A DNA stretch of 28,456 nt from an uncultured archaeon (GTDB taxonomy: Archaea > Asgardarchaeota > Lokiarchaeia > Sigyniarchaeales > Promethearchaeaceae): assembly GCA_964426185.1 (NCBI GenBank), contig CAYRPF010000029.1, forward strand, positions 6,571 to 35,026, written 5' to 3'. Of the stretch, positions 4,607 through 28,434 are shown in pieces. The translations under genes were made by a program, and so were the position numbers. The notes below the pieces were generated by a model. That model had not been told where the DNA came from, did not search any database, and was given only the letters and a program-made list of their open reading frames with translations. Each line of letters starts with the position of its first letter. The first letter of the stretch is position 1.

Positions 4607-7840
<3,234 letters not shown>

Positions 7841-9667: not shown

Positions 9668-12600
9668 ATGGACTATATGGAAACCGAACCGACCAACCGA
9701 GCGCGTGCAAAACTCCAATTTTGGAAATCCAGCTTTTTAGATCTTTCCTATCGGAACAATCAACTTAATTTTAATCCGATGGGTAAAAATGTAATTGAAA
9801 TTCTCCATCAAGACAGCTCTGCCTTTTTTAAAATTTTAGTAATCATGCAACAAACTTTTACCATCCCATCTGTATATTCTCCTTCAAAACGAAAAATAAA
9901 ATCGACAAAAGAACCCCAAAAATTAAAAATATTGGAAATTCCTTCTAAAATTGCAAGTAGTTTAACCAGTCCTCATATCCGAGCATTAAATAAAAAGAAA
10001 AAAGATTTAAGATTAACCGAATTGCTCACATATGAAAATGACATTAATTTAAAAAAAAAAATAGGAAATTTGCGGGCAAAAACCGAAGAAATGTTGGAAG
10101 AACGCGGCATAAACACGCTTTTTCTTACGTTTGGACTTCTCAATTGGCAAGAACCGAATGAAAAACAGAGTTATACTTCCCCCATTCTTTTTATTCCAAT
10201 AGAAATTAAGGCTAATCCTTTAGAAATCACCTTGTTAGATGATGAAGTAATTGTAAATCCGGCTTTACGTGAAAAACTCCGAGAATTCGGGGAGCATCTC
10301 CCAAATTTTCCTGATGAATTCAGTACTCGCACATTTTTAAGGTTTTTTTCTGAATTGAGTTCCAATATACAGGACAAGAAGAATTGGAAAGTCGAGTCCC
10401 GTCAGTTCATTTCCACATTTGCCTTTACAAAGGTAAATCTCTTTGAAGATATCGATGATCATGCCGATCTTATATTATCTCATCCAATTATTAAGGCTAT
10501 CGCAGAAGAACAAGGTTTTGAAGAGGCGCCCGAAAACATTCCTAATTTGGAGCAATTATCAGGTGAAGCAAATCCAAAACGGTTTTACACCTTGCTAGAT
10601 AGCGATTCAAGCCAGATGGAAGCAATACTATATGCAAAATCCGGCTGTTCTTTAGTTATTCAAGGTCCTCCTGGAACAGGCAAATCACAATGCATCGCAA
10701 ATATCATTGGAGAATGCTTAGCTGAAGGAAAAAAGGTACTATTTGTGGCTCAGAAAAAGGCTGCATTAAATGTGGTTAAGCGAAGATTAGATCGATGTGG
10801 AATCGGAGATTTTTGCCTGCTTGTCCATTCTCAGAATTCAAATAAGAAAAATCTGCTGCAATCTATCCAAAATACGATGGATCGAAATTTTCCCATACAT
10901 TCTTTACCAGAAAATAAGTTTCATGATTTAATACAAGCAAGAAATCGTTTAAATGAATATGTTGAATTGGTAAATCAGCCATTCGGTAAAATGCAAAAAT
11001 CAATTTATCAAATTGCTGGAAAAATGCTGAAATTTAAAAATATTCCCAAAATTCAGGCCCCTTTTCGTGATCCTAATTTAGTTACTTTCCAAGATTATAC
11101 TTTACTCAAGACGTTATTCGGAGAATTAGACCAATTCCGACATACTATGGAAAATTACTCCAAAAATCCTTGGTATACTGCCAGAATCACCCATCCCCTC
11201 ATATTATCCAACGAGTTGAAGGTCAGATTGAAAGAGTGTCTAACCCTCTTTAGAGAATCCAATTTTGCCCTCCAAGAGCAAATCCGCCAATTCCATTTTA
11301 AATTTCCCCTTAATTTTGATCATAATCCTGATATCATCACCGAATGGCAGCAGCAGCAAAGGAAAATTCAGTATTGGATGGAAGCTATGCGAAACCTGTT
11401 CCCCCACTGGTTGAAGTTGGAAGAAAGTTATCAAGAACTGCGGGATTATTTTGATATTGATGCTCTAATTGATTACACTCAATTAAATTTTGAATCTTTC
11501 CGCCAAATTCGTCTTGCGTTCAATTTAGGGAAAACTTTAAAAGATCAACTTAGTTCTCCAGTAGATGAAAAACTTCAAAAATACGCGGATATGCTGCAAA
11601 CCTTTCAAGATCACTTAAATGTGTTCAATCTGAAATCACTCATAGCACCCATTCAAACTGTGCAAGAATTAAGCGACGTTCACCAATTTTTTCAACGTTT
11701 TTACCCCAAAGCCTTGCTGTTACCAGTTGATTTATTAGTTTCACGTTTTACCACCGATTATCTGGTATGGAGAAAACGGTTATCCTCAACTTATAGAGAA
11801 GATCGAAAACAAATATTGGCATGCAGGAGAGAAGGCCGTAAAAAGGTTCGTCCGTTAGATTATTTAAACCAAATCAAGAAATTTCAAGATTCATTCGGTA
11901 AACCTTATCATCACACCGCTGTCGAAATCTCCAGCATGGTTTCTGAGTTTGAAATCTTATACCAAGATTGGGGTAAACTTCATCAAATGGAGCAGGAACT
12001 ACGGCCATTCTTCAAAATTTCCTACTTACCGACGGCCATTGATCAATCAATTTGGGACAATAACCATAGTTTTGCCCAGCAGTGGTTGGATAATTTACCT
12101 TATTTAAACGATTGGTTTGAGGTGCAAGTCAGGGCGCATCAGATTGCCGATTTAGGATATGCGGAGTTATTTAAGGCTTTACTCGATGAAAAATTTTATC
12201 TTCCTGACAATTACACTCCGGTTAGCTATGAACTTATTTTTCTCCATTCCTTTTACGGTTATTGGCTGGATAATATTATGGATAGCCTTCCTCCGCTGGT
12301 AAATTTCGAAAGATCCTTTTATATAAAGCAATTAAAGCGATTTCGTCAACGTGATGAAGAAATATTGAAAATAAATCAGCAGAGGTTGGCGCAACAATTA
12401 GCTCAAAGGCGGCCACAATCGGAAGTCGATTTGTCACTTGAAATTTTAACCCAAATTGGGTATTTACGCCGAGAAGCAAAGAAAAAGAGAAACATCAAAC
12501 CTTTACGGCATATATTTAAGGAGTCCCAACAATTAATCACGCAAATAACCCCTTGTTTTCTCATGAGCCCCCTATCCATCGCCAATTATTTGGATTTAGA

Positions 12601-13933
12601 AGCTTATTACCGTTTCTTTGATGTAGTGATTTTTGATGAAGCTTCCCAAGTTACTCCCGAAGATGGAATCGGGGCTATAGCTCGCGGTAAAAGTCTCGTA
12701 GTAGTAGGTGATTCAGAGCAATTACCACCCACCCGATTTTTTACCAGTAAGAAAAGTGATGAAATGTTCGATGAAACTTTGGATACGGAAATACAAACGA
12801 TGGAATCGCTGCTGGATGAATGCACCGGCATCGGGTTCAGGGAGAAAATGCTAAGATTTCACTACCGTTCCAAAAAGGAAGGGCTGATTGCCTTCAGCAA
12901 TTATAACTACTACAATGGGAAGTTGTTTAGTTTTCCCGATATCGGCAATATCTCTCCAAATAACTCATTAAATATTTCAAATTCCGCTCAAAAGGGTCAA
13001 AATTCCAGTATAACTGGATACTCAGAAATTCACCACCTTCCCGCCATTCAATTCTGTTATATTCCCAAAGGTGTTAAAGAAAAAGGGCGTAACCCCATCG
13101 AGGCTCAAGCGGTAGCTCAAGCCATAGTGCAACACTATCGAAATAACCAAGCTGCGAGAACAAATTATTCTTTGGGAGTGGTGGCTTTTTCAATCGTTCA
13201 ACAAGCAGAAATTGAGGATGCACTGCATAAATTATTAAAAAAGTATCCTGAAGTAGAAGAATTGGCAAATAGGACCCAAGATGAGAAATATTTTATAAAA
13301 AATCTGGAAAATGTGCAAGGAGATGAAAGGGATTTTATTTTTTTCAGTGTCGGTTACACCCGAGATGCTAGTGGTAATTTCAGCCTAAATTTCGGACCTT
13401 TAAACAGAACAGGAGGTTATCGGCGGTTAAACGTGGCTATCACTCGCGCTCGTTATCATTGCAAGCTCTTTGCATCCTTTTTACCTTCAGAAATATCCAT
13501 GGATCGGGTTAAAGCCCGGGGATTAAAGGATTTGCTAAATTATATGGAATATGCTCGATCGGGAAGACTTCCTCTCAATTTAATTCCCGAATCGTTGGAA
13601 AAGCAAGAATTAGATACCGATACTTTGGAATTCGATATTAAGGAGGCATTAGAAGAAGAAGGATTTACAGTGGTACCGAAAGTTGGTATTTCGAACATCA
13701 GAGTCGATTTGGCCGTTGTACATCCCAATGACCACACTCGTTATATTTTGGGAATTGAGTGCGATGACGGTTCATATGCAGAAGCATTAAATGCACGTGA
13801 TAGAGATCGAATCCGATACAATGTCCTTACAGGGCTGGGATGGAAAATTCTGCATATATATACCCCAGAATGGATTTATCAACGCGAAAAAACACTTCAA
13901 CGGATTAAAAGAATTATTTTTTCTCAAATTTAA
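9668..13933 (+). CDS. DUF4011 - SF1 (UPF1/DNA2-like) helicase - C-terminal Vsr-like/MTES_1575 restriction-endonuclease fold; Hhe-like defence protein
   Basis: DUF4011 'KLQFWKSSFLDLSYRNNQLNF', 'EERGINTLFLTFGLLNW...SPILFIP'; helicase 'QGPPGTGKS', 'FDEASQ', 'GDSEQLPP', 'HYRS', 'ENVQGDERD', 'RRLNVAITRAR'; nuclease 'RVDLAV..ILGIECD..RDRDR.R..L..LGW'. Confidence 0.9.
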   Translation: MDYMETEPTNRARAKLQFWKSSFLDLSYRNNQLNFNPMGKNVIEILHQDSSAFFKILVIMQQTFTIPSVYSPSKRKIKSTKEPQKLKILEIPSKIASSLTSPHIRALNKKKKDLRLTELLTYENDINLKKKIGNLRAKTEEMLEERGINTLFLTFGLLNWQEPNEKQSYTSPILFIPIEIKANPLEITLLDDEVIVNPALREKLREFGEHLPNFPDEFSTRTFLRFFSELSSNIQDKKNWKVESRQFISTFAFTKVNLFEDIDDHADLILSHPIIKAIAEEQGFEEAPENIPNLEQLSGEANPKRFYTLLDSDSSQMEAILYAKSGCSLVIQGPPGTGKSQCIANIIGECLAEGKKVLFVAQKKAALNVVKRRLDRCGIGDFCLLVHSQNSNKKNLLQSIQNTMDRNFPIHSLPENKFHDLIQARNRLNEYVELVNQPFGKMQKSIYQIAGKMLKFKNIPKIQAPFRDPNLVTFQDYTLLKTLFGELDQFRHTMENYSKNPWYTARITHPLILSNELKVRLKECLTLFRESNFALQEQIRQFHFKFPLNFDHNPDIITEWQQQQRKIQYWMEAMRNLFPHWLKLEESYQELRDYFDIDALIDYTQLNFESFRQIRLAFNLGKTLKDQLSSPVDEKLQKYADMLQTFQDHLNVFNLKSLIAPIQTVQELSDVHQFFQRFYPKALLLPVDLLVSRFTTDYLVWRKRLSSTYREDRKQILACRREGRKKVRPLDYLNQIKKFQDSFGKPYHHTAVEISSMVSEFEILYQDWGKLHQMEQELRPFFKISYLPTAIDQSIWDNNHSFAQQWLDNLPYLNDWFEVQVRAHQIADLGYAELFKALLDEKFYLPDNYTPVSYELIFLHSFYGYWLDNIMDSLPPLVNFERSFYIKQLKRFRQRDEEILKINQQRLAQQLAQRRPQSEVDLSLEILTQIGYLRREAKKKRNIKPLRHIFKESQQLITQITPCFLMSPLSIANYLDLEAYYRFFDVVIFDEASQVTPEDGIGAIARGKSLVVVGDSEQLPPTRFFTSKKSDEMFDETLDTEIQTMESLLDECTGIGFREKMLRFHYRSKKEGLIAFSNYNYYNGKLFSFPDIGNISPNNSLNISNSAQKGQNSSITGYSEIHHLPAIQFCYIPKGVKEKGRNPIEAQAVAQAIVQHYRNNQAARTNYSLGVVAFSIVQQAEIEDALHKLLKKYPEVEELANRTQDEKYFIKNLENVQGDERDFIFFSVGYTRDASGNFSLNFGPLNRTGGYRRLNVAITRARYHCKLFASFLPSEISMDRVKARGLKDLLNYMEYARSGRLPLNLIPESLEKQELDTDTLEFDIKEALEEEGFTVVPKVGISNIRVDLAVVHPNDHTRYILGIECDDGSYAEALNARDRDRIRYNVLTGLGWKILHIYTPEWIYQREKTLQRIKRIIFSQI

Positions 13934-20699: not shown

Positions 20700-21356
20700 A
20701 TGAAAACCCCTAATATCATTAGGCGCTTAGTAAATGAAATCAGCGCAGAACCCATAAATGATGAAGATGATAATCTTCCAATTGAATATTATGAATTGAG
20801 AGAATTGGCCAAAACCCGCGTTTTGCTTAAATCTTCTCTTAAAACACATATTTTCATCTACCTTATTGTAAATACATTTTTAATCATCCTAAATATTTTA
20901 GGAAATATACCTCCCGTGTCCAACTTCACAGATCTTTGGAGTTTATGGAGCATTCTCGGCTGGGGATTACTTCTGGTTGCCCATACCATGATATTAGTCA
21001 CAAATAATATTCCAAATTTAGAATATCGTATTTATATCATCACATCAACAATTTTACTGTATATCGGTCTTTTCCTAATTTACCTAAACAACTATTTGTT
21101 TATTGCAGGACAAACTAGCGACTATTGGTGGTATTGGCCAGATATAGCAATAATTTTATTTATTTCAGCATATGCTTGGATTGTTTTCTATTCGGAAAAT
21201 AAGGAAAAGTTCAAATCTCGAGTGGACAAGGAAATAGCTGAATTGATTGAGAAAGAAGAATTGAAAGAAAATGATGAAAAAAGCAGAGCTGCTAATGGTA
21301 GTAATGTTCAAGTTAAAGATAAGAAGAAAAACAAGAAAAAAGGTGAACTAATCTAA
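20700..21356 (+). CDS. Membrane protein with 2TM domain(s)
   Basis: 2TM pattern 'HIFIYLIVNTFLIILN...WSLWSILGWGLLLVAH', a second degenerate copy ('LIYLN...WWYWPDIA'), then charged tail 'VDKEIAEL'. Confidence 0.8.
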   Translation: MKTPNIIRRLVNEISAEPINDEDDNLPIEYYELRELAKTRVLLKSSLKTHIFIYLIVNTFLIILNILGNIPPVSNFTDLWSLWSILGWGLLLVAHTMILVTNNIPNLEYRIYIITSTILLYIGLFLIYLNNYLFIAGQTSDYWWYWPDIAIILFISAYAWIVFYSENKEKFKSRVDKEIAELIEKEELKENDEKSRAANGSNVQVKDKKKNKKKGELI

Positions 21357-21374
21357 GAGAAGTGTATCTAAAAC

Positions 21375-21986
21375 ATGTTTTCAAAAAAAATTCGACTTTC
21401 AAAAGGGAATAGAACAATTTCTGTAGCAACTGCACTGGTTTTGCTGGCAATAGATGATCTTATTCAAGAAAATCAAGGCGGAGAAAAAGTCGTTTATGGA
21501 TATCAAATTATGGGTCATTTAAAAAATAATTACTCATGGAATGTTAAATCTGGAACCGTTTATCCTATTTTGAAGAAATTATCTCAAGAAATGTTGATTA
21601 AAAAAGGAGTAGGTCCCGATACCAATAGTAAAAGGCAAACAATCTTTTATTCAATCTCCCGTCGTGGCGAAAAATTAGCAAACGAGATTCGATCATTGAA
21701 TGATGAAGCATTGGATGCAGCTTTAACTTCTGGCTCCACGTTAAAGAATAAAACACCATATAAATTAGTCAAAGAAGGATTTCCCTCAAATAATTTTGCA
21801 GAACATTATCTCAGCCCTATATTACGGGATTTTTGCCAAAATGTTTCCAATTTGATTGCTAAGCAAGATAAAGAAGGGCTTTCAAGGATAGAACAAGAAA
21901 TTGAGGTAGCGATAACAAAATTAGATTCTGTAAAGGAAATCCTAAAAGGTGAGATTGAAAAAATAAGAACTTTAAAAAAACTCTGA
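21375..21986 (+). CDS. PadR-family transcriptional regulator with C-terminal coiled coil
   Basis: 'YGYQIM', 'SGTVYPILKKL', 'YSISRRG'; 18 bp downstream of the 2TM gene. Confidence 0.88.
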   Translation: MFSKKIRLSKGNRTISVATALVLLAIDDLIQENQGGEKVVYGYQIMGHLKNNYSWNVKSGTVYPILKKLSQEMLIKKGVGPDTNSKRQTIFYSISRRGEKLANEIRSLNDEALDAALTSGSTLKNKTPYKLVKEGFPSNNFAEHYLSPILRDFCQNVSNLIAKQDKEGLSRIEQEIEVAITKLDSVKEILKGEIEKIRTLKKL

Positions 21987-21996
21987 AATTTTTATT

Positions 21997-22413
21997 TCAT
22001 CCTACTAGTTGGCAGTAAATTGTTCTTTTTCGCGCTTTTTCATCAAATTCACAGAAAACAATTTGTTGCCATGTTCCCAGAATTAATTCTCCATTAATAA
22101 TAGGAACAGTTTGACTGGGAGGGACGAAAAATGAGCGTAAATGGCTATGTCCATTATGATCTCCCCAGGTTTGATGATGTTGGTAATCAGGACCGGCGGG
22201 AAAGAGTTGCTGTAGCATTGTTGGAACATCAATTTTGACTAATCCCGGTTCAAATTCCAAAAAAGAAATACCTCCCGTCGATCCAGGCATAAATATTGTT
22301 ACTGTTCCATCTTTAATATTTGATTTTTGCACACACCGCTCAACATTGGGCGTTATATTGACAATTTCATCAGGAACGGTTTGTATATCGAATTTAAAAG
22401 TTTCAGTAACCAT
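21997..22413 (-). CDS. yjbQ: YjbQ / UPF0047 (secondary thiamine-phosphate synthase) family
   Basis: 'VNITPNV', 'GSTGGI', 'EPGL', 'YQHH', 'NGHSHLRS', 'LILGTWQQIVFCEFD', 'RTI'. ATG 22413 preferred to GTG 22437. Confidence 0.92.
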   Translation of the reverse strand: MVTETFKFDIQTVPDEIVNITPNVERCVQKSNIKDGTVTIFMPGSTGGISFLEFEPGLVKIDVPTMLQQLFPAGPDYQHHQTWGDHNGHSHLRSFFVPPSQTVPIINGELILGTWQQIVFCEFDEKARKRTIYCQLVG

Positions 22414-22474
22414 CTCATTTTCACCAATATCTTGCACAATTGCATAGAATTTCTTGGAAGTGCATGAATTTTTA

Positions 22475-23614
22475 CTAAATTAAAGGAGGATCTTTAGGGG
22501 TATAGGTCAATTTATCATATCCATCCTCCTTAATAACCAAATCATCCTCCAAACGCACACCCCATTGACCTTCCCAATATAAACCGGGTTCATTGGTGAT
22601 GATCATGTTTTCTCTCTGAAGAATACTATCCGGCATTTTCGCCCGCATACCTCCTCCCACATCATGTACTTGAAAGCCTAATGAATGGCCTAAACTGTGA
22701 AAGTAAAGCTTTTCATGGTCATATCCTTTTTCTGCTAAAGCTTCTCGAACCCGAATCGCAGGTAAATTCATAGGATTTCCTGCTTTGATCACCTTATAAC
22801 TTTTCGCTTTGGCATAATTCAGCGCTTGATAGGAATTCACAAAATCTTCGGATGGTTCTCCACCAATCCAATAAGTCCATGTAATATCGGAACACATTCG
22901 ATGAGGTTTCATCCCAGAATCAATTAATAGTACACCTTTCTCGATTTTTTTATCAGAACCATTATGGTGGGGATCAGCCGCGTTTGCGTTATTGGCTATG
23001 ATGGCTGGAAAACCAATTCCACCATTTTCCAAATATTTTGCTTCTAATTTTCTCTTTACTTCATTCTCGGTCATGCCGATTTTTACCCAATTGGGTAGAT
23101 CCTCCAATATTTCCAGGTTTATCTTGGCAGTTTCACGTAAATCTTCGATATCTTCATTAGTTTTTATAGTGCGTAATTCGTAAATAATAGGTGCAGCGGA
23201 GAGAAAATTAGTATTTGGTGCGAGCGATCTTAACGCACGATATTCTCCTAGGGGTAAATATTCAGCAAATGCAGTACTTTCCATAGATAGTACATTTTCT
23301 CCAAAATCAAGCGCAATTTTGGGTTTGTTAAGGATTTTTTTTAATTTTTCCTGAATATCATCAAATCCAGTATAGGCCGAAACTTGGGCATTTACACCCA
23401 TTTTATTTAATTGCTTTTCTACCATGGGTTTTTCCATAGTACATGTTAAAACCTGATGGTTTCCCGAACGGTCAATATAAATGTAATGTCGAATGTGTAC
23501 TTCTAAATTTAGCATAAATTCAGAATGAATATCTGAGCCTTCGGAACAAGCGATGAGCCATCCATCAATTTCATTTCTATCGAGAAGATGTTGGGCACGT
23601 TCAAATAGATTCAT
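22475..23614 (-). CDS. M24 family Xaa-Pro amino/dipeptidase
   Basis: 'LRTIKT', 'ADPHH', metal ligands in 'IDSG', 'SDIT', 'HSLGHSLGFQVHD', 'TNEPGLY', 'GVRLEDD'. Confidence 0.93.
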   Translation of the reverse strand: MNLFERAQHLLDRNEIDGWLIACSEGSDIHSEFMLNLEVHIRHYIYIDRSGNHQVLTCTMEKPMVEKQLNKMGVNAQVSAYTGFDDIQEKLKKILNKPKIALDFGENVLSMESTAFAEYLPLGEYRALRSLAPNTNFLSAAPIIYELRTIKTNEDIEDLRETAKINLEILEDLPNWVKIGMTENEVKRKLEAKYLENGGIGFPAIIANNANAADPHHNGSDKKIEKGVLLIDSGMKPHRMCSDITWTYWIGGEPSEDFVNSYQALNYAKAKSYKVIKAGNPMNLPAIRVREALAEKGYDHEKLYFHSLGHSLGFQVHDVGGGMRAKMPDSILQRENMIITNEPGLYWEGQWGVRLEDDLVIKEDGYDKLTYTPKDPPLI

Positions 23615-23662: not shown

Positions 23663-23697
23663 GTAAGATTTATATTCACTATCCTAAAAATTGTAAT

Positions 23698-25386
23698 ATG
23701 GTAAAAAAGCGCGTAATTCTTTTCGGTATGATTATAATCACCTCCTTTATTTTGCAAATCATTGCCCTTTCTTGCTTCATTCCAGTAAAAAGCGATCACG
23801 ATATCGAATTTGATTATGTTTATAAGTGGAAATTGAATGGCAAAACGGGGGATTATTACGATTATGATGAAAAAATGACCACAACTGGGCATTATGTGGT
23901 GGATTTTGATGGAGATGTGGCTAATGTCATTGCGGAATTCAGTTGGAAATGGAAAGCAACCTATCAAGGTAGTTACTACGATTCAGCAGAGGGTGCGGAT
24001 GAGTACATTTTTCAATTTTCGTTGATTGATGGAAAATATATAGGTTATCAAACTGATCAAGATGAGTATCATCCTGATATGGGAGTATGGTTCTATATTC
24101 CGAACATTGAAACAACAAATTCACATAAAATTCTTACAGGAACTTATCAAAAATCACAAGTGAAATCTCTTGAAACAATTTGGATACGATCATTAAGCCC
24201 GCAGTTAGGTTATAAATTCACCGATACTGGGAATTTTCACCGAAATGATGAGTACGGCAACATGGACGCCACATATCGCAGTGATTATTACTTCACCAAA
24301 GAAGGTTACTTACTTGGTGAAATTTATTCTGAATCAGATAAAGGGTACAGCAATGGATATTACAGCACATATGATGTTAATTCAAAAGTTTTTGTGTATT
24401 CAAGTAATTATGGCCGATCTTTAAACTATTTTTATTTCTTGTTATGCTATTGGCTCCCTATTATTGTAGTTTATGGATATGCTATTGCATTGAAAAATTA
24501 TAATATTCGGCGAAGAAAACACATCAATTACCGAGAAAAAACCTTGATATTTCAACCGAATATTGATTTTAAAATAGAAAATGCCGACTTCAGCTCAATT
24601 TACAAAAGTTTAATCCCAGCGTTTGTGTGGCGCACATACCGTCAAGAAGGTAAGGTTTATTCAATAACTGATGATAATAAATTAAAGGGATTAGCTCTAA
24701 TTGATGCTAAGGGAAAAGTAGGAACACTTTTTGGGAAATATCAAAGCTTAATGATTAAGCAGACTAAAATTGATTATTTCTTTACCGAAAATACACAGCA
24801 ACATCGATATCACTGCATTGATAACTATGATATCTTAAGAATTCCCAATTTGTCTGCCCAAAATTTCGATTATAATGCATTTCTGGTAAATCCTTTAGCT
24901 GAAAAATATGTTCCGGCAGTTGTCGATCTTATTTCAAACGAAGATTTTGGCAAAGTATTACCAGAAGTCTGGAAATGGGTTCATCAAGCCATAAGCAATG
25001 AGATTGCATATGTTGCAATAGCAAATATAAAAGAACCATGGGTAAAAGAAATATTAGATGCATTAGAGACAAAGAAATTCCCCCCTCCTGAAGCTGTGGA
25101 AGAAGATGTAATAATGGGAGTAGGATTCGCGGTTATCTATCAAGATATAGGATGGTTGTACGGACTTTATGTTCATCCTGCATTTAGGAATTTAGGAATT
25201 GGTAGAAATCTTGCTCTGGCTCGGTTATCTGCTTTAAAAGAACTGGGAGCAAAAGAAGTGTTGACAGAAATTGGTCAATGGAACGGACCTGCAAAAAAAA
25301 TCTATGAAAATTTCAACACAAAAACAGTAGGGAAAATATATCTGTATGGTAAGAAGAAACCCACAGTTCGCATCCGCCGTAGATAG
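23698..25386 (+). CDS. Membrane-spanning GNAT acetyltransferase: signal/TM, Tyr/Asp-rich ectodomain, TM, cytoplasmic GNAT domain(s)
   Basis: Hydrophobic N-terminus; TM 'YFYFLLCYWLPIIVVYGYAIAL' followed by 'RRRK'; GNAT motif A 'LYGLYVHPAFRNLGIGRNL' and motif B 'NGPAKKIYENF'. Confidence 0.85.
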   Translation: MVKKRVILFGMIIITSFILQIIALSCFIPVKSDHDIEFDYVYKWKLNGKTGDYYDYDEKMTTTGHYVVDFDGDVANVIAEFSWKWKATYQGSYYDSAEGADEYIFQFSLIDGKYIGYQTDQDEYHPDMGVWFYIPNIETTNSHKILTGTYQKSQVKSLETIWIRSLSPQLGYKFTDTGNFHRNDEYGNMDATYRSDYYFTKEGYLLGEIYSESDKGYSNGYYSTYDVNSKVFVYSSNYGRSLNYFYFLLCYWLPIIVVYGYAIALKNYNIRRRKHINYREKTLIFQPNIDFKIENADFSSIYKSLIPAFVWRTYRQEGKVYSITDDNKLKGLALIDAKGKVGTLFGKYQSLMIKQTKIDYFFTENTQQHRYHCIDNYDILRIPNLSAQNFDYNAFLVNPLAEKYVPAVVDLISNEDFGKVLPEVWKWVHQAISNEIAYVAIANIKEPWVKEILDALETKKFPPPEAVEEDVIMGVGFAVIYQDIGWLYGLYVHPAFRNLGIGRNLALARLSALKELGAKEVLTEIGQWNGPAKKIYENFNTKTVGKIYLYGKKKPTVRIRRR

Positions 25387-25428
25387 ATATAAATCATTTT
25401 AGGAAGATATAAGGAGTTCATTTGAAAG

Positions 25429-26658
25429 ATGGAACAAGAAAAAAGAATTCGATCGGATAATTATACTCAACATCTAACACAATTAAAGAACTTTCAATTA
25501 ACCCTCTATTCGGTACCACTTTCTTCGTGCCAAACAAATCCCCATTTCACTCATTTAAAATCATGGATCATGTTGCATATTGGAACGGGAAGTTACCAGT
25601 TACTTGCAAAAATCCATCCGGAATTATTTCACCAAGAAATGTCGGTTATTTCTGCCATTCGAGATGAAAATCGAAATGCAATCATTCCAGATCGTTTCAT
25701 CATTATAGAAAATCGTAGATATTTCCTTTCAATTAAAGGTTGTGGTGCCTATGAGGATATGTTTGAAGGAGGGCAATTAACACAACAAAGTCTAAGAAAT
25801 ACATGTCGAGATCCAAATTTACTTCCCAAAATTAAGGAATTAACAAATACAACTGGATTTTTCATGGCGGAAAATTGGATGGGTGAGAGCCCTTACGGTG
25901 CACAAGGTGAATTGAATGCCAATGATGAATTGGAATTTTCCACATTGGCCAATCCTCTGCATATTAATGGCGCATATCTCTGTCCTGTTATCGCAATTAT
26001 CCGTATACCAGAACCAATTGAAACATTGGCGAGGAAGTTTTTTTGGTATCGAACTTATAAAAAACCATTTTACCAAGTAATCCGCTTGGTTCCTTCCAAA
26101 ATACGGTTATATTTCGAATCTACGGAGGTACTTAAACATCCCGAGCAGTTAATGGACGTATTAGGGATAGATACGGGAGAAGAACTGCGTGAATTTGAAT
26201 TGAATTTTATCAGAAGCGGCATCGCTCTTCTATCCCTATTTACCCGTTCTGCAATCATTCAAGAAAATACAATTAAAGGATTAATCTATCAAGATGTTTG
26301 GTTAGATAAAGATGCAATTTTGGCTCTTGATGGAACCATTCATTTCGCAGACATCGAAGGTTTAATGTATTCAACCGTACAATTAGCAGATTATCCAAAT
26401 TTTCAAGAAAAAGAATGGCAGAAATTAGCTTTCGAGTTTCTTTTTGCATTAAATAACCTGGATAAGACACGCCGTCAACTTGAAAATCTTTCTTTAGATT
26501 ACACTTCTCAAAGACTGGAATTGGCAAATTTAGTTCAAGAGTCTTTGGAAACTGATCCCATTGCCGATACAACTGTCCATGATAGAAATCTATACATAAA
26601 AATTCAGTGGAAATCGCTTCCACCTATAGAAATTCCTTTTTTAGAACAATTTCATTAA
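25429..26658 (+). CDS. Uncharacterised protein with SelO/YdiU-like kinase-fold motifs
   Basis: 'FLSIKGCG', 'GESPYG', 'CPVIAII', 'IRLVPSKIRLYF', 'WLDKDAIL..DG..HFADIEG'; AAGGAG upstream. The CDS is certain; the fold call is tentative. Confidence 0.6.
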   Translation: MEQEKRIRSDNYTQHLTQLKNFQLTLYSVPLSSCQTNPHFTHLKSWIMLHIGTGSYQLLAKIHPELFHQEMSVISAIRDENRNAIIPDRFIIIENRRYFLSIKGCGAYEDMFEGGQLTQQSLRNTCRDPNLLPKIKELTNTTGFFMAENWMGESPYGAQGELNANDELEFSTLANPLHINGAYLCPVIAIIRIPEPIETLARKFFWYRTYKKPFYQVIRLVPSKIRLYFESTEVLKHPEQLMDVLGIDTGEELREFELNFIRSGIALLSLFTRSAIIQENTIKGLIYQDVWLDKDAILALDGTIHFADIEGLMYSTVQLADYPNFQEKEWQKLAFEFLFALNNLDKTRRQLENLSLDYTSQRLELANLVQESLETDPIADTTVHDRNLYIKIQWKSLPPIEIPFLEQFH

Positions 26659-26697
26659 AAAAGAACAACCAACTACAAAAAAGGTGAATAGAAATAT

Positions 26698-28434
26698 ATG
26701 ATTAATAATTTAACCTCTCAAGAGGGACTTGAAATCTTAGAATCGCTAAAAAATCATGAATTTATTCCTGTAGACTTGGAAAATATAAAAAATTTAGAAG
26801 AATTAGGAATAATTCATGGCCGAGAGCCATTGGATATTAACGGAATAATCCAAATAGATTTAGATGAGAAAAAAAGGGAATATCAAGAGCAGTTGCAAAG
26901 ATACGATACTTTAAAGGAAAAATTTATTCAAATATCAAAGGAAAGAGATAATTCAAGATATTTGAGTGAATTCTTTTACCCATTTGGCTTTGGTAAAAAA
27001 CGGAAAATGGTAAAAAGGCTTTCATCCATCATGAATCAAATTCGTTTGGAAGAAGAGCAATTAGCCAGACTTAAAAAGGAAATATTGAAGATGATCACCC
27101 TTCGAGATGGTGAACTTGGCTCCATCCAGTTTAAAAACAAAAGTTACAGAATTACACCTAAGGGAATAAGCTTAATTCGAGAAATTAAAATCCGTCCGCG
27201 TTTTCTCAATCGCAATATGGAAGATCTATTAAAATTCTTGAACTTAGTAGATCAAAATTATCAAAATCAAATTGATACGGTGCAATCTCATATCACAGGT
27301 CGGAAATTTTCTCCAATTCTCGTTCCATATATAGCAGATTTAGATCAACTCCATCTGGTTCCGTACTTCGATAGAATAGGAAGGAAACATAATCCTTACG
27401 TAGATCGAATTGTTCCCGAAGAACGAATTATCAAAAAAATGGTAGATGAATTATACGATTTTCCAATTTCACCAAATTTTCTGAAGCAAACTAACAAACT
27501 TTATCGAATAATGAAAAATATCATGAACTCTTTTGGTAGTGTTCCAAATGAAATTAGGATTACAATGCGATTAATATCATATATTCTACTTTATTGGGCA
27601 TACAACCAAACACGAGATGATTCCAAAAACTTATTGAAGCATCCACTAATATTGAGATTCATTAACAATTTAAATGAATTAGAAAGAAATTATTTTGGTC
27701 ATTCCTCCTCAGAAGAAAAGTCACATTATTCCGATTTAAAAATTGGTAGATATAAAAAACTGCATCCACTTACTTCATTATTTATATTGGCATTAAGCGA
27801 TGATCCTTCTAAATTCAGCTATTTTCTACCTAAAGTTAATCATGGATTAAAGGGAGCCACTTTTTTTGCATCAACCTTATCAATAATGCCTTGGACAAAA
27901 GAAGAATCATGGTTACTGCTTAAAAGAGCAGAAAAACAAGTTTTAATGGCCCAAAGTGTCCAATTTATTCCTGAATTGCTAGAATATAGTATTATTTTAA
28001 ATTTGAATCCTAAGTTGCTATCAAGTATTGGAGAATTAAGTGAAGTTGATCTAAAATACTGGAAATATGTAATTTTACCGATTATAGCTTCAATTGATAT
28101 CTTTTCATTGAATGAAGAAATATCAAATTATGTAGAAAAATACCCATTGTCCTACATCACCAATCCTCGCCCGTATTACCATTATTATGGTTATTATCAT
28201 AGAAGAACTTGGTATTTCTGGATTGGAAGACTACATCGGCATTATTATCGACGATATCCCACAACAACGACATATACTACTTATCATACAGGAACTCGAG
28301 GAGGACGGATGCACTCTAATCGATTAATCAGTGGAACCAGAGGTGTTGGTTCGGTGGGTAGATTTGGAGGAGGAAGTCGAGGTTCGATGAGGGGTAGCCG
28401 GTATTCTTCTCTTCACCATCATACTATTGGTTAA
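26698..28434 (+). CDS. Uncharacterised protein: wHTH-like N-terminus split by a coiled coil, helical core, Y/H/R- and G/R/S-rich C-terminal tail
   Basis: 'KNLEELGII'...coiled coil...'YRITPKGISL'; tail 'PRPYYHYYGYYHRR...RGGRMH...GRFGGGSRGSMRGSRYSSLHHHTIG'; AAGGTGA RBS at 26681-26687. Confidence 0.75.
   Translation: MINNLTSQEGLEILESLKNHEFIPVDLENIKNLEELGIIHGREPLDINGIIQIDLDEKKREYQEQLQRYDTLKEKFIQISKERDNSRYLSEFFYPFGFGKKRKMVKRLSSIMNQIRLEEEQLARLKKEILKMITLRDGELGSIQFKNKSYRITPKGISLIREIKIRPRFLNRNMEDLLKFLNLVDQNYQNQIDTVQSHITGRKFSPILVPYIADLDQLHLVPYFDRIGRKHNPYVDRIVPEERIIKKMVDELYDFPISPNFLKQTNKLYRIMKNIMNSFGSVPNEIRITMRLISYILLYWAYNQTRDDSKNLLKHPLILRFINNLNELERNYFGHSSSEEKSHYSDLKIGRYKKLHPLTSLFILALSDDPSKFSYFLPKVNHGLKGATFFASTLSIMPWTKEESWLLLKRAEKQVLMAQSVQFIPELLEYSIILNLNPKLLSSIGELSEVDLKYWKYVILPIIASIDIFSLNEEISNYVEKYPLSYITNPRPYYHYYGYYHRRTWYFWIGRLHRHYYRRYPTTTTYTTYHTGTRGGRMHSNRLISGTRGVGSVGRFGGGSRGSMRGSRYSSLHHHTIG

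Follow-up and report, generated by a model that had tools for sequence, protein, structure and literature searches.

Organization of the locus

The DNA analysed here (the window) is a stretch of 28,456 nt, positions 6,571 to 35,026 of contig CAYRPF010000029.1 in assembly GCA_964426185.1, from an uncultured archaeon of the Lokiarchaeia most closely related to Ca. Harpocratesius repetitus and further members of the Promethearchaeota. At its right end lie three genes, each present in single copy in the assembly, which encode a membrane-anchored protein with a GCN5-related N-acetyltransferase (GNAT) region (protein 1), a kinase-fold enzyme resembling SelO (protein 2) and a large helical protein with a fixed C-terminal glycine (protein 3), a terminus that protein 2 may activate (Table 1). 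A preliminary description of this DNA reported three co-oriented ORFs spaced by 42 and 39 nt, and the open reading frame (ORF) calls bear this out, the first gap separating genes 1 and 2 and the second genes 2 and 3; Shine–Dalgarno (SD)-like motifs are also present ahead of genes 2 and 3, as had been claimed. Gene 1 had been considered leaderless, and a TTTATAT box is indeed located at 23669, although the window contains 20 copies of this 7-mer where 17 would be expected, so that it is no rarer than chance, and several gene 1 homologues have SD-like motifs upstream; the leaderless assignment is therefore unproven. The contig ends 22 nt past gene 3, and complete relatives with the same layout have no conserved gene downstream of gene 3.

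Table 1. Features of the three-gene locus, with positions in the window
Feature	Position	Strand	Evidence
Gene 1, 562 aa: signal/anchor, beta-rich ectodomain, transmembrane helix, cytoplasmic GNAT region	23698–25386	+	Hydropathy, Pfam, alignment
Ectodomain, aa 30–242, DUF6263/DUF3108-like half-barrel	23785–24423	+	Structure match, alignment
Transmembrane helix, about aa 245–266	24430–24495	+	Hydropathy
Cytoplasmic GNAT region	24535–25383	+	Pfam, alignment
SD-like AAGGAG ahead of gene 2	25411–25416	+	Sequence inspection
Gene 2, 409 aa: kinase-fold enzyme of the clade of SelO and NRPS-independent siderophore (NIS) synthetases, predicted AMP transferase or acyl-adenylating ligase	25429–26658	+	AlphaFold, Foldseek, VIA
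R219-x2-P-S-x2-R226, equivalent to SelO RVAPSHLR, flipped-ATP phosphate binding	26083–26106	+	R219 and R226 invariant (250/250), motif match to E. coli SelO
Catalytic loop QDVWLDKD (aa 288–295) and DFG-equivalent D308	26290–26352	+	Invariance (250/250), register by motif
SD-like AAGGTGA ahead of gene 3	26681–26687	+	Sequence inspection
Gene 3, 578 aa: winged-helix-like unit interrupted by coiled-coil hairpin, helical body of no recognised fold, disordered tail	26698–28434	+	Structure model; always directly after gene 2
Tyr/Arg/Gly/Thr-rich (RGG) insertion, aa ~489–568, disordered	28162–28398	+	Predicted local distance difference test (pLDDT) < 50; Loki alignment
Terminal motif RYSSLHHHTIG: His motif and invariant C-terminal Gly, proposed reactive end	28399–28431	+	Tail alignments

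Conservation and layouts of the module

Among 101 genomes of the same order, gene 2 was found in 25, full-length gene 1 in 25 and a gene 3 match in 26, and in almost every case the three co-occur in the same gene order; the genomes that depart from this are accounted for by contig ends, a single divergent gene 3 that was detected by profile, and a single 68-codon remnant. A gene 3 homologue lies directly after gene 2 in all 80 genome loci compared (from Lokiarchaeia, Thermoplasmata, Bathyarchaeia and Methanoperedens), as it does, bar one unscored case, in all metagenome loci that extend far enough downstream, and the gap between the two genes is mostly −4 to +6 nt. The gene 3 families of Lokiarchaeia and of the other lineages are homologous (hhalign 97 %, E 2e-11). 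The co-conservation of the trio that had been anticipated thus extends across archaea and into myxobacteria, and on these sequence comparisons the three genes almost certainly form a real functional module.

The 68-codon frame (locus L198; G016:C250:21268–21447, − strand) is isolated, its match to protein 3 is confined to the C-terminal end, and its own last residues are LHYHTTG. There is no enzyme or GNAT gene in the 7 kb examined around it, and it may be a remnant or a small stand-alone peptide.

The module occurs in two layouts. That of the window (layout A: ectodomain–transmembrane–GNAT protein, enzyme, protein 3) is also carried by other Lokiarchaeia, by Methanomassiliicoccales and other Thermoplasmata, by Methanoperedens and by myxobacteria such as Sandaracinaceae. 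In layout B, seen in about 30 of the 80 genome loci (in Thermoplasmata and Bathyarchaeia), the enzyme and protein 3 are followed by an ectodomain protein with a transmembrane segment, a Pro-rich linker and a zinc ribbon, and the GNAT is encoded by a separate, convergent gene. The GNAT therefore need not be covalently joined to the ectodomain, and the view that the module obligatorily signals through the transmembrane segment to the GNAT is not supported. Since fused, split and reordered versions of the module all retain the four parts, a single shared function is strongly indicated. The ectodomain proteins of layout B (L067 10560–11609 and others) carry a conserved QQIIIKETVKV stretch in their C-terminal region, with the Pro-rich linker and zinc ribbon, and the soluble GNAT may dock at this end. 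In the bacterial locus L109 an extra ectodomain–transmembrane gene without a GNAT (5321–6220; 32 % identity) lies directly upstream of gene 1, and Ser/Thr kinase genes are located near both bacterial loci.

Protein 2

The AlphaFold model of protein 2 (pLDDT 95.6) matches YdiU in Foldseek (E 8e-5). With VIA the best matches are to SelO/YdiU (Z 13–14.7, rmsd [root-mean-square deviation] 4.2–4.6 Å over about 260 aa), followed nearly tied by NIS synthetases (Z 10–12.9 over about 290 aa, nearly full length) and then by canonical kinases (Z 8–9.8); neither SidJ nor NiRAN is among the listed fold matches. The SelO-like fold that the preliminary description had read from motifs is thus the top match in both structure searches. 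By sequence, protein 2 has no match in Pfam and no convincing one in NCBIfam, a PDB sequence search with its profile found nothing, none of 43 family members matches the SelO profile PF02696, and the IucA/IucC Pfam profile does not match either, nor is there a siderophore gene cluster among the neighbours. The host genome and 40 relatives likewise contain no match to PF02696, although control profiles did match. Judged from its model, protein 2 represents a new family of kinase-fold proteins, to which SelO/YdiU comes closest. This family is compact and has a distantly related sister clade (P0170, P0187, P0188, P0190 and P0205) that occurs without GNAT, ectodomain or Gly-tail genes (L112 8001–10602; L201 6001–7194; L203 2102–3373); in L112 two divergent sister-clade copies lie in tandem behind two M16 peptidase genes.

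Residue invariance was scored over 250 protein 2 sequences, and the register with E. coli SelO was set by motifs and by the D295–D308 spacing rather than by superposed coordinates. R82, K103, E148, R219, R226, D293, K294, D295 and D308 are invariant in 250/250, and the motifs of protein 2 and SelO pair as ENRNA with GDGRG, IKGCG with LKGAG, RLVPSKIR with RVAPSHLR, QDVWLDKD with HGVMNTDN, and HFAD with LDYG. The SelO residues K113, E136, R176, N253 and D262 all have invariant counterparts in protein 2, that of Asn253 being an Asp. In SelO itself, the catalytic base is D252, accompanied by phosphate-binding residues that include R176 and by metal-binding residues (10.1101/2020.07.08.194084). In the motif register, this base corresponds to the invariant K294 of protein 2, and to a Ser in MchC, while the canonical kinase catalytic Asp is replaced by Val in protein 2. 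Because the SelO phosphate and metal residues are kept and Val stands at the canonical catalytic Asp, transfer of AMP from a flipped ATP is likely, and from these alignments we regard protein 2 as probably an AMP transferase. With an invariant Lys in place of the SelO base, it would add a new branch of enzymes lying between the AMPylases of the SelO type and the NIS ligases.

Protein 3

A glycine is the last residue in all 76 complete genome copies of protein 3 and in 51 of 52 metagenome and bacterial copies, or in 101 of 102 distinct tails, which are kin and not independent samples; the non-Gly exceptions are one frameshift and one copy that breaks off at 200 aa, close to the end of its contig. 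By comparison, 31 of 674 background proteins (about 5 %) end in Gly, and the last residues of neighbouring proteins vary freely. The terminal Gly holds across 22 lineages whose enzymes are less than 60 % identical. It could have been a by-product of an overlapping GGAGG ribosome site, but this is ruled out, since all four Gly codons are used and the residue is kept also where gene 3 is the last gene of the operon. The distance from the last His to the C-terminus ranges from 3 to 16 residues, and tails that have been lengthened independently (in Lokiarchaeia, in myxobacteria and in genome G014) have all retained Gly as their last residue. H573 does not vary and H575 hardly does, Tyr, Ser and Thr are nowhere fixed in all clades, and the residue beside the terminal Gly is hydrophobic or aromatic, the tail as a whole being a flexible tether.

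The Tyr/Thr/Ser/RGG-rich tail that had been put forward as a target of modification is a clade-specific insertion, the conserved part being the His motif and the terminal Gly. The RGG insertion is absent in 20 of 23 aligned Loki homologues and down to a few residues in one more; it is confined to close relatives of this genome and variable among them.

In the model of protein 3 (pLDDT 79) the predicted order of elements (helix–helix–strand…hairpin–helix) is winged-helix-like, interrupted by a coiled-coil hairpin of about 95 aa, and the Pfam profile HTH_45 matches only with E 0.06. Fold searches, whose match lists are dominated by the coiled coil, recovered only generic coiled-coil proteins in the PDB and relatives of protein 3 itself in the ESM Atlas; they recognised no fold for the helical body, which may still prove to be a known one. 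A nucleic-acid-binding winged helix–turn–helix protein had been suggested here; the order of secondary structure elements agrees with the fold, but binding of nucleic acid is not supported, as the RGG part is unconserved and homologues have an acidic helix where the recognition helix would lie. A relationship to DUF4003 was not borne out by Pfam, and a feature match to DUF2207 (0.82) is at chance level.

Protein 1

Protein 1 has hydrophobic segments at about aa 5–28 and 245–266 by hydropathy, and the receptor-like layout proposed for it is evident, with ectodomain, transmembrane helix and GNAT in that order. The ectodomain has a motif conserved in the homologue alignment (R182-x-D184-x-Y186-G187), and its structure matches in the ESM Atlas are to DUF6263 (template modelling score 0.72) and to the extracellular region of a histidine kinase from Nitrososphaerota that carries PF11271 (score 0.55). 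Half-barrels of the DUF6263/DUF3108 type belong with the LolA/RseB-like lipid carriers, and the ectodomain may sense an envelope cue. A query with protein 1 recovered no shorter stand-alone ectodomain.

The GNAT domain (aa 466–538) matches Pfam PF00583 with an E-value of 8e-10 and 39.4 bits against a cut-off of 20.7; its best PDB sequence matches are weak (Naa30/RimI, E ~1e-8). The CoA loop, V492-x4-R497-x2-G500-x-G502, is intact; R497, G500, E524 and N529 are invariant in the alignment and G502 nearly so. Since the PF00583 cut-off is passed and the CoA loop is kept from Lokiarchaeia to myxobacteria, the GNAT is probably an active acyl-CoA transferase. We found no described precedent for a single-pass, receptor-shaped acetyltransferase.

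Comparison with known systems

The preliminary description knew of no named system with this composition, and the literature searched, which covered few subscription papers, contains no description of the module. PADLOC anti-phage defence models have no match in any of the three proteins, and its gene content sets the module apart from microcin and siderophore loci as well as from known defence loci. The nearest relative of protein 2, SelO/YdiU (PF02696; PDB 6eac, 6lna and 9jym), shares the kinase fold, the order of motifs (GDGR, KGxG, alphaC Glu, RxxxSxxR, metal ligands) and the Val at the canonical catalytic Asp. Protein 2, however, is only 9–14 % identical to it and lacks a PF02696 match, has Lys at the catalytic base and Asp at Asn253 with the HGVMNTDN loop replaced by QDVWLDKD, lacks the SelO C-terminal domain and Cys/Sec tail, and is tied to dedicated partner genes.

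The microcin enzymes MceI/MceJ (MchD/MchC) offer a parallel in composition, with a SelO-like enzyme and a GNAT-fold acyltransferase beside the gene for a substrate with a Gly-rich, fixed C-terminus; like protein 2, MchC lacks the SelO base Asp on the motif reading. Protein 2 nevertheless has no detectable sequence similarity to MchC (although the same test of profile against single sequence also misses SelO), the module GNAT is of the PF00583, CoA-dependent type and membrane-linked rather than HlyC-type (PF02794), and the presumed substrate is a cytoplasmic protein of 480–590 aa ending in Gly rather than an exported peptide ending in Ser, with no conserved microcin precursor, siderophore or export genes. 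The NIS synthetases (AcsD, SbnC, IucA, AsbB, DesD and the GNAT-fused DfoC) share the kinase-derived core and work with acyl-CoA acyltransferases, but protein 2 is much shorter, has a different catalytic loop and lacks an IucA/IucC match as well as siderophore pathway genes.

Legionella SidJ likewise has a kinase fold and flipped ATP, and it forms an amide after first adenylating a carboxylate on a protein, although it targets a Glu side chain and needs calmodulin. The E. coli operon ygiB–ygiC, finally, pairs an ATP-dependent peptide ligase with an envelope-associated protein whose RGG tail ends in Gly; the folds (a DUF1190 protein and an ATP-grasp enzyme) are unrelated to those of the module and the likeness is one of analogy only. 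The physiological substrate of YgiC, a peptide–spermidine ligase, is itself unknown (PMC11762307). We note that in E. coli (L195 3745–5582) the YgiB tail, RGGFG...SMGG, adjoins YgiC, and the C-terminus of YgiB is an obvious candidate for the natural substrate of YgiC.

Possible mechanism and alternatives

Protein 3 is the obvious candidate substrate of protein 2, and we think it fairly probable that it is one. Because an AMP transferase lacking the SelO base is always encoded beside a protein with a fixed, tethered terminal Gly, the simplest reading is that of a carboxylate-activating ligase and its substrate, and we tentatively propose, at somewhat less than even confidence, that protein 2 adenylates the C-terminal carboxylate of protein 3 for ligation, with the sensor-GNAT supplying or controlling the acceptor. 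Acyl-adenylates are made by NIS synthetases. The kinase-fold enzyme SidJ forms one on a protein (10.1101/2021.04.13.439722), and the SelO-like MchC/MceJ together with an HlyC-type acyltransferase attaches a siderophore to the carboxylate of the C-terminal Ser of a microcin (PMC3281104, PMC7680869), HlyC-type enzymes being GNAT-like (PMC8339906). YgiB beside YgiC supplies a further precedent, for a Gly-ending tail encoded next to a peptide ligase.

In this scheme protein 2 would, as we strongly infer, bind ATP flipped as in SelO and transfer AMP rather than phosphate. The acceptor of AMP would be the free carboxylate of the terminal Gly, presented flexibly by the tail with the His motif as a recognition element, and the product an acyl-adenylate. 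More speculatively, the adenylate might be discharged onto an amine or hydroxyl, of a polyamine, another small molecule or a protein Lys, and the acyl-CoA-dependent GNAT might make or mask that acceptor or acetylate protein 2 or 3, with the lipid-carrier-like ectodomain coupling the reaction to an envelope cue. Such roles are more likely for the GNAT than one like that of MceI because its CoA loop is kept.

Several observations weigh against adenylation of the terminal Gly. Comparison of the protein 2 profile with the single E. coli SelO and MchC sequences is not significant, and the register of the catalytic loop is motif-based; D293 and D289 are also conserved, and either could serve as a shifted base. 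The distant sister clade often keeps Lys or Arg at the K294 position yet lacks the partner genes. A His nucleophile likewise would need no base, and H573 of protein 3 is invariant. A binding pocket or a protease could equally keep Gly as the last residue; the GNAT, with its canonical CoA loop, is unlike MceI/HlyC and hence not a direct equivalent of MceI; and no acceptor-making gene is conserved beside the module in the relatives compared.

The main rival, which we consider unlikely, is dual modification of side chains, with protein 2 transferring AMP to a His, Tyr or Ser of the conserved protein 3 end, the sensor-GNAT acetylating a Lys, and the terminal Gly being a docking determinant only. 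The best fold match is itself a side-chain AMPylase, the conserved histidines offer acceptors, the weak best matches of the GNAT (RimI/Naa30) are protein acetyltransferases and D293 might act as the displaced base; Lys at the SelO base position, the variable spacing from His to Gly, odd for a single rigid docking motif, and the want of any Tyr, Ser or Thr invariant across clades all argue the other way. It is improbable that the module carries out NIS-like synthesis at the membrane, in which the GNAT would acylate an amine and protein 2 condense it with a carboxylic acid into a metallophore or lipid-like product, protein 3 serving as a scaffold or, through its His motif, as a metal-binding partner. 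Such a role would accord with the second-best, nearly full-length fold match to NIS enzymes (the GNAT–NIS fusion DfoC among them), the intact CoA loop and the carrier-like ectodomain fold, but the module has no conserved partner gene for a monooxygenase, decarboxylase or transporter, NIS enzymes exceed protein 2 in length by about 170 aa, and the invariant Gly would be left unexplained.

Equally improbable, in our estimate, is a non-covalent switch in which the protein 3 C-terminus, as a ligand, activates or inhibits protein 1 or 2, or else is a protease or degron signal, and protein 2 modifies unrelated cellular targets. A hydrophobic or aromatic residue followed by Gly on a flexible tether would suit a peptide-binding pocket, tight translational coupling would suit an enzyme–inhibitor pair, and protein 2 has a sister clade that lacks protein 3; pockets, however, usually tolerate exchange (to Ala or Ser), which none of 101 tails displays, and no protease gene is linked to the module among the neighbourhoods compared. 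As for phosphorylation, which the preliminary description allowed for the gene 2 product, an atypical protein kinase acting on the Tyr/Thr/Ser-rich tail would be in keeping with the fold, its Z-scores to canonical kinases and the invariant Lys, Glu and DFG-like Asp, but with Val at the canonical catalytic Asp, invariant SelO-type flipped-ATP arginines and an unconserved hydroxyl-rich tail it is very improbable.

If the terminal Gly is activated as proposed, the module would represent C-terminal protein tagging without a ubiquitin fold or E1, in the archaeal group closest to eukaryotes, and would give a model of two poorly understood pairs, MceIJ and YgiB/YgiC; the chemistry is accessible with two soluble proteins and ATP. 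A more far-reaching form of the proposal, which we put forward as doubtful, is a ubiquitin-fold-independent conjugation system of Asgard and other archaea and myxobacteria, in which the kinase-fold enzyme would take the part of an E1, with the last Gly of a large helical carrier as its target, and the receptor-linked GNAT would control or perform transfer of the carrier to an amine (of a metabolite, a lipid or a protein Lys) on an outside cue.

Other genes in the window

Upstream of gene 1, window positions 20700–23614 contain a 2TM-domain gene and genes for a PadR regulator, YjbQ and an M24 peptidase, whose order beside the module is kept only in Ca. Harpocratesius repetitus. These are read as local synteny, the divergent M24 peptidase being absent in other lineages; formylmethanofuran-dehydrogenase-like genes, frequent neighbours in Loki genomes, are also absent in other lineages and were set aside in the same way. 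An actin-family gene at 1408–2562 (− strand; Pfam Actin, E 3e-130) is as expected in a Loki-type Asgard archaeon. The gene at 9668–13933 (+ strand) encodes a 1421-aa DUF4011 superfamily-1 helicase with an MTES_1575 nuclease domain at its C-terminus.

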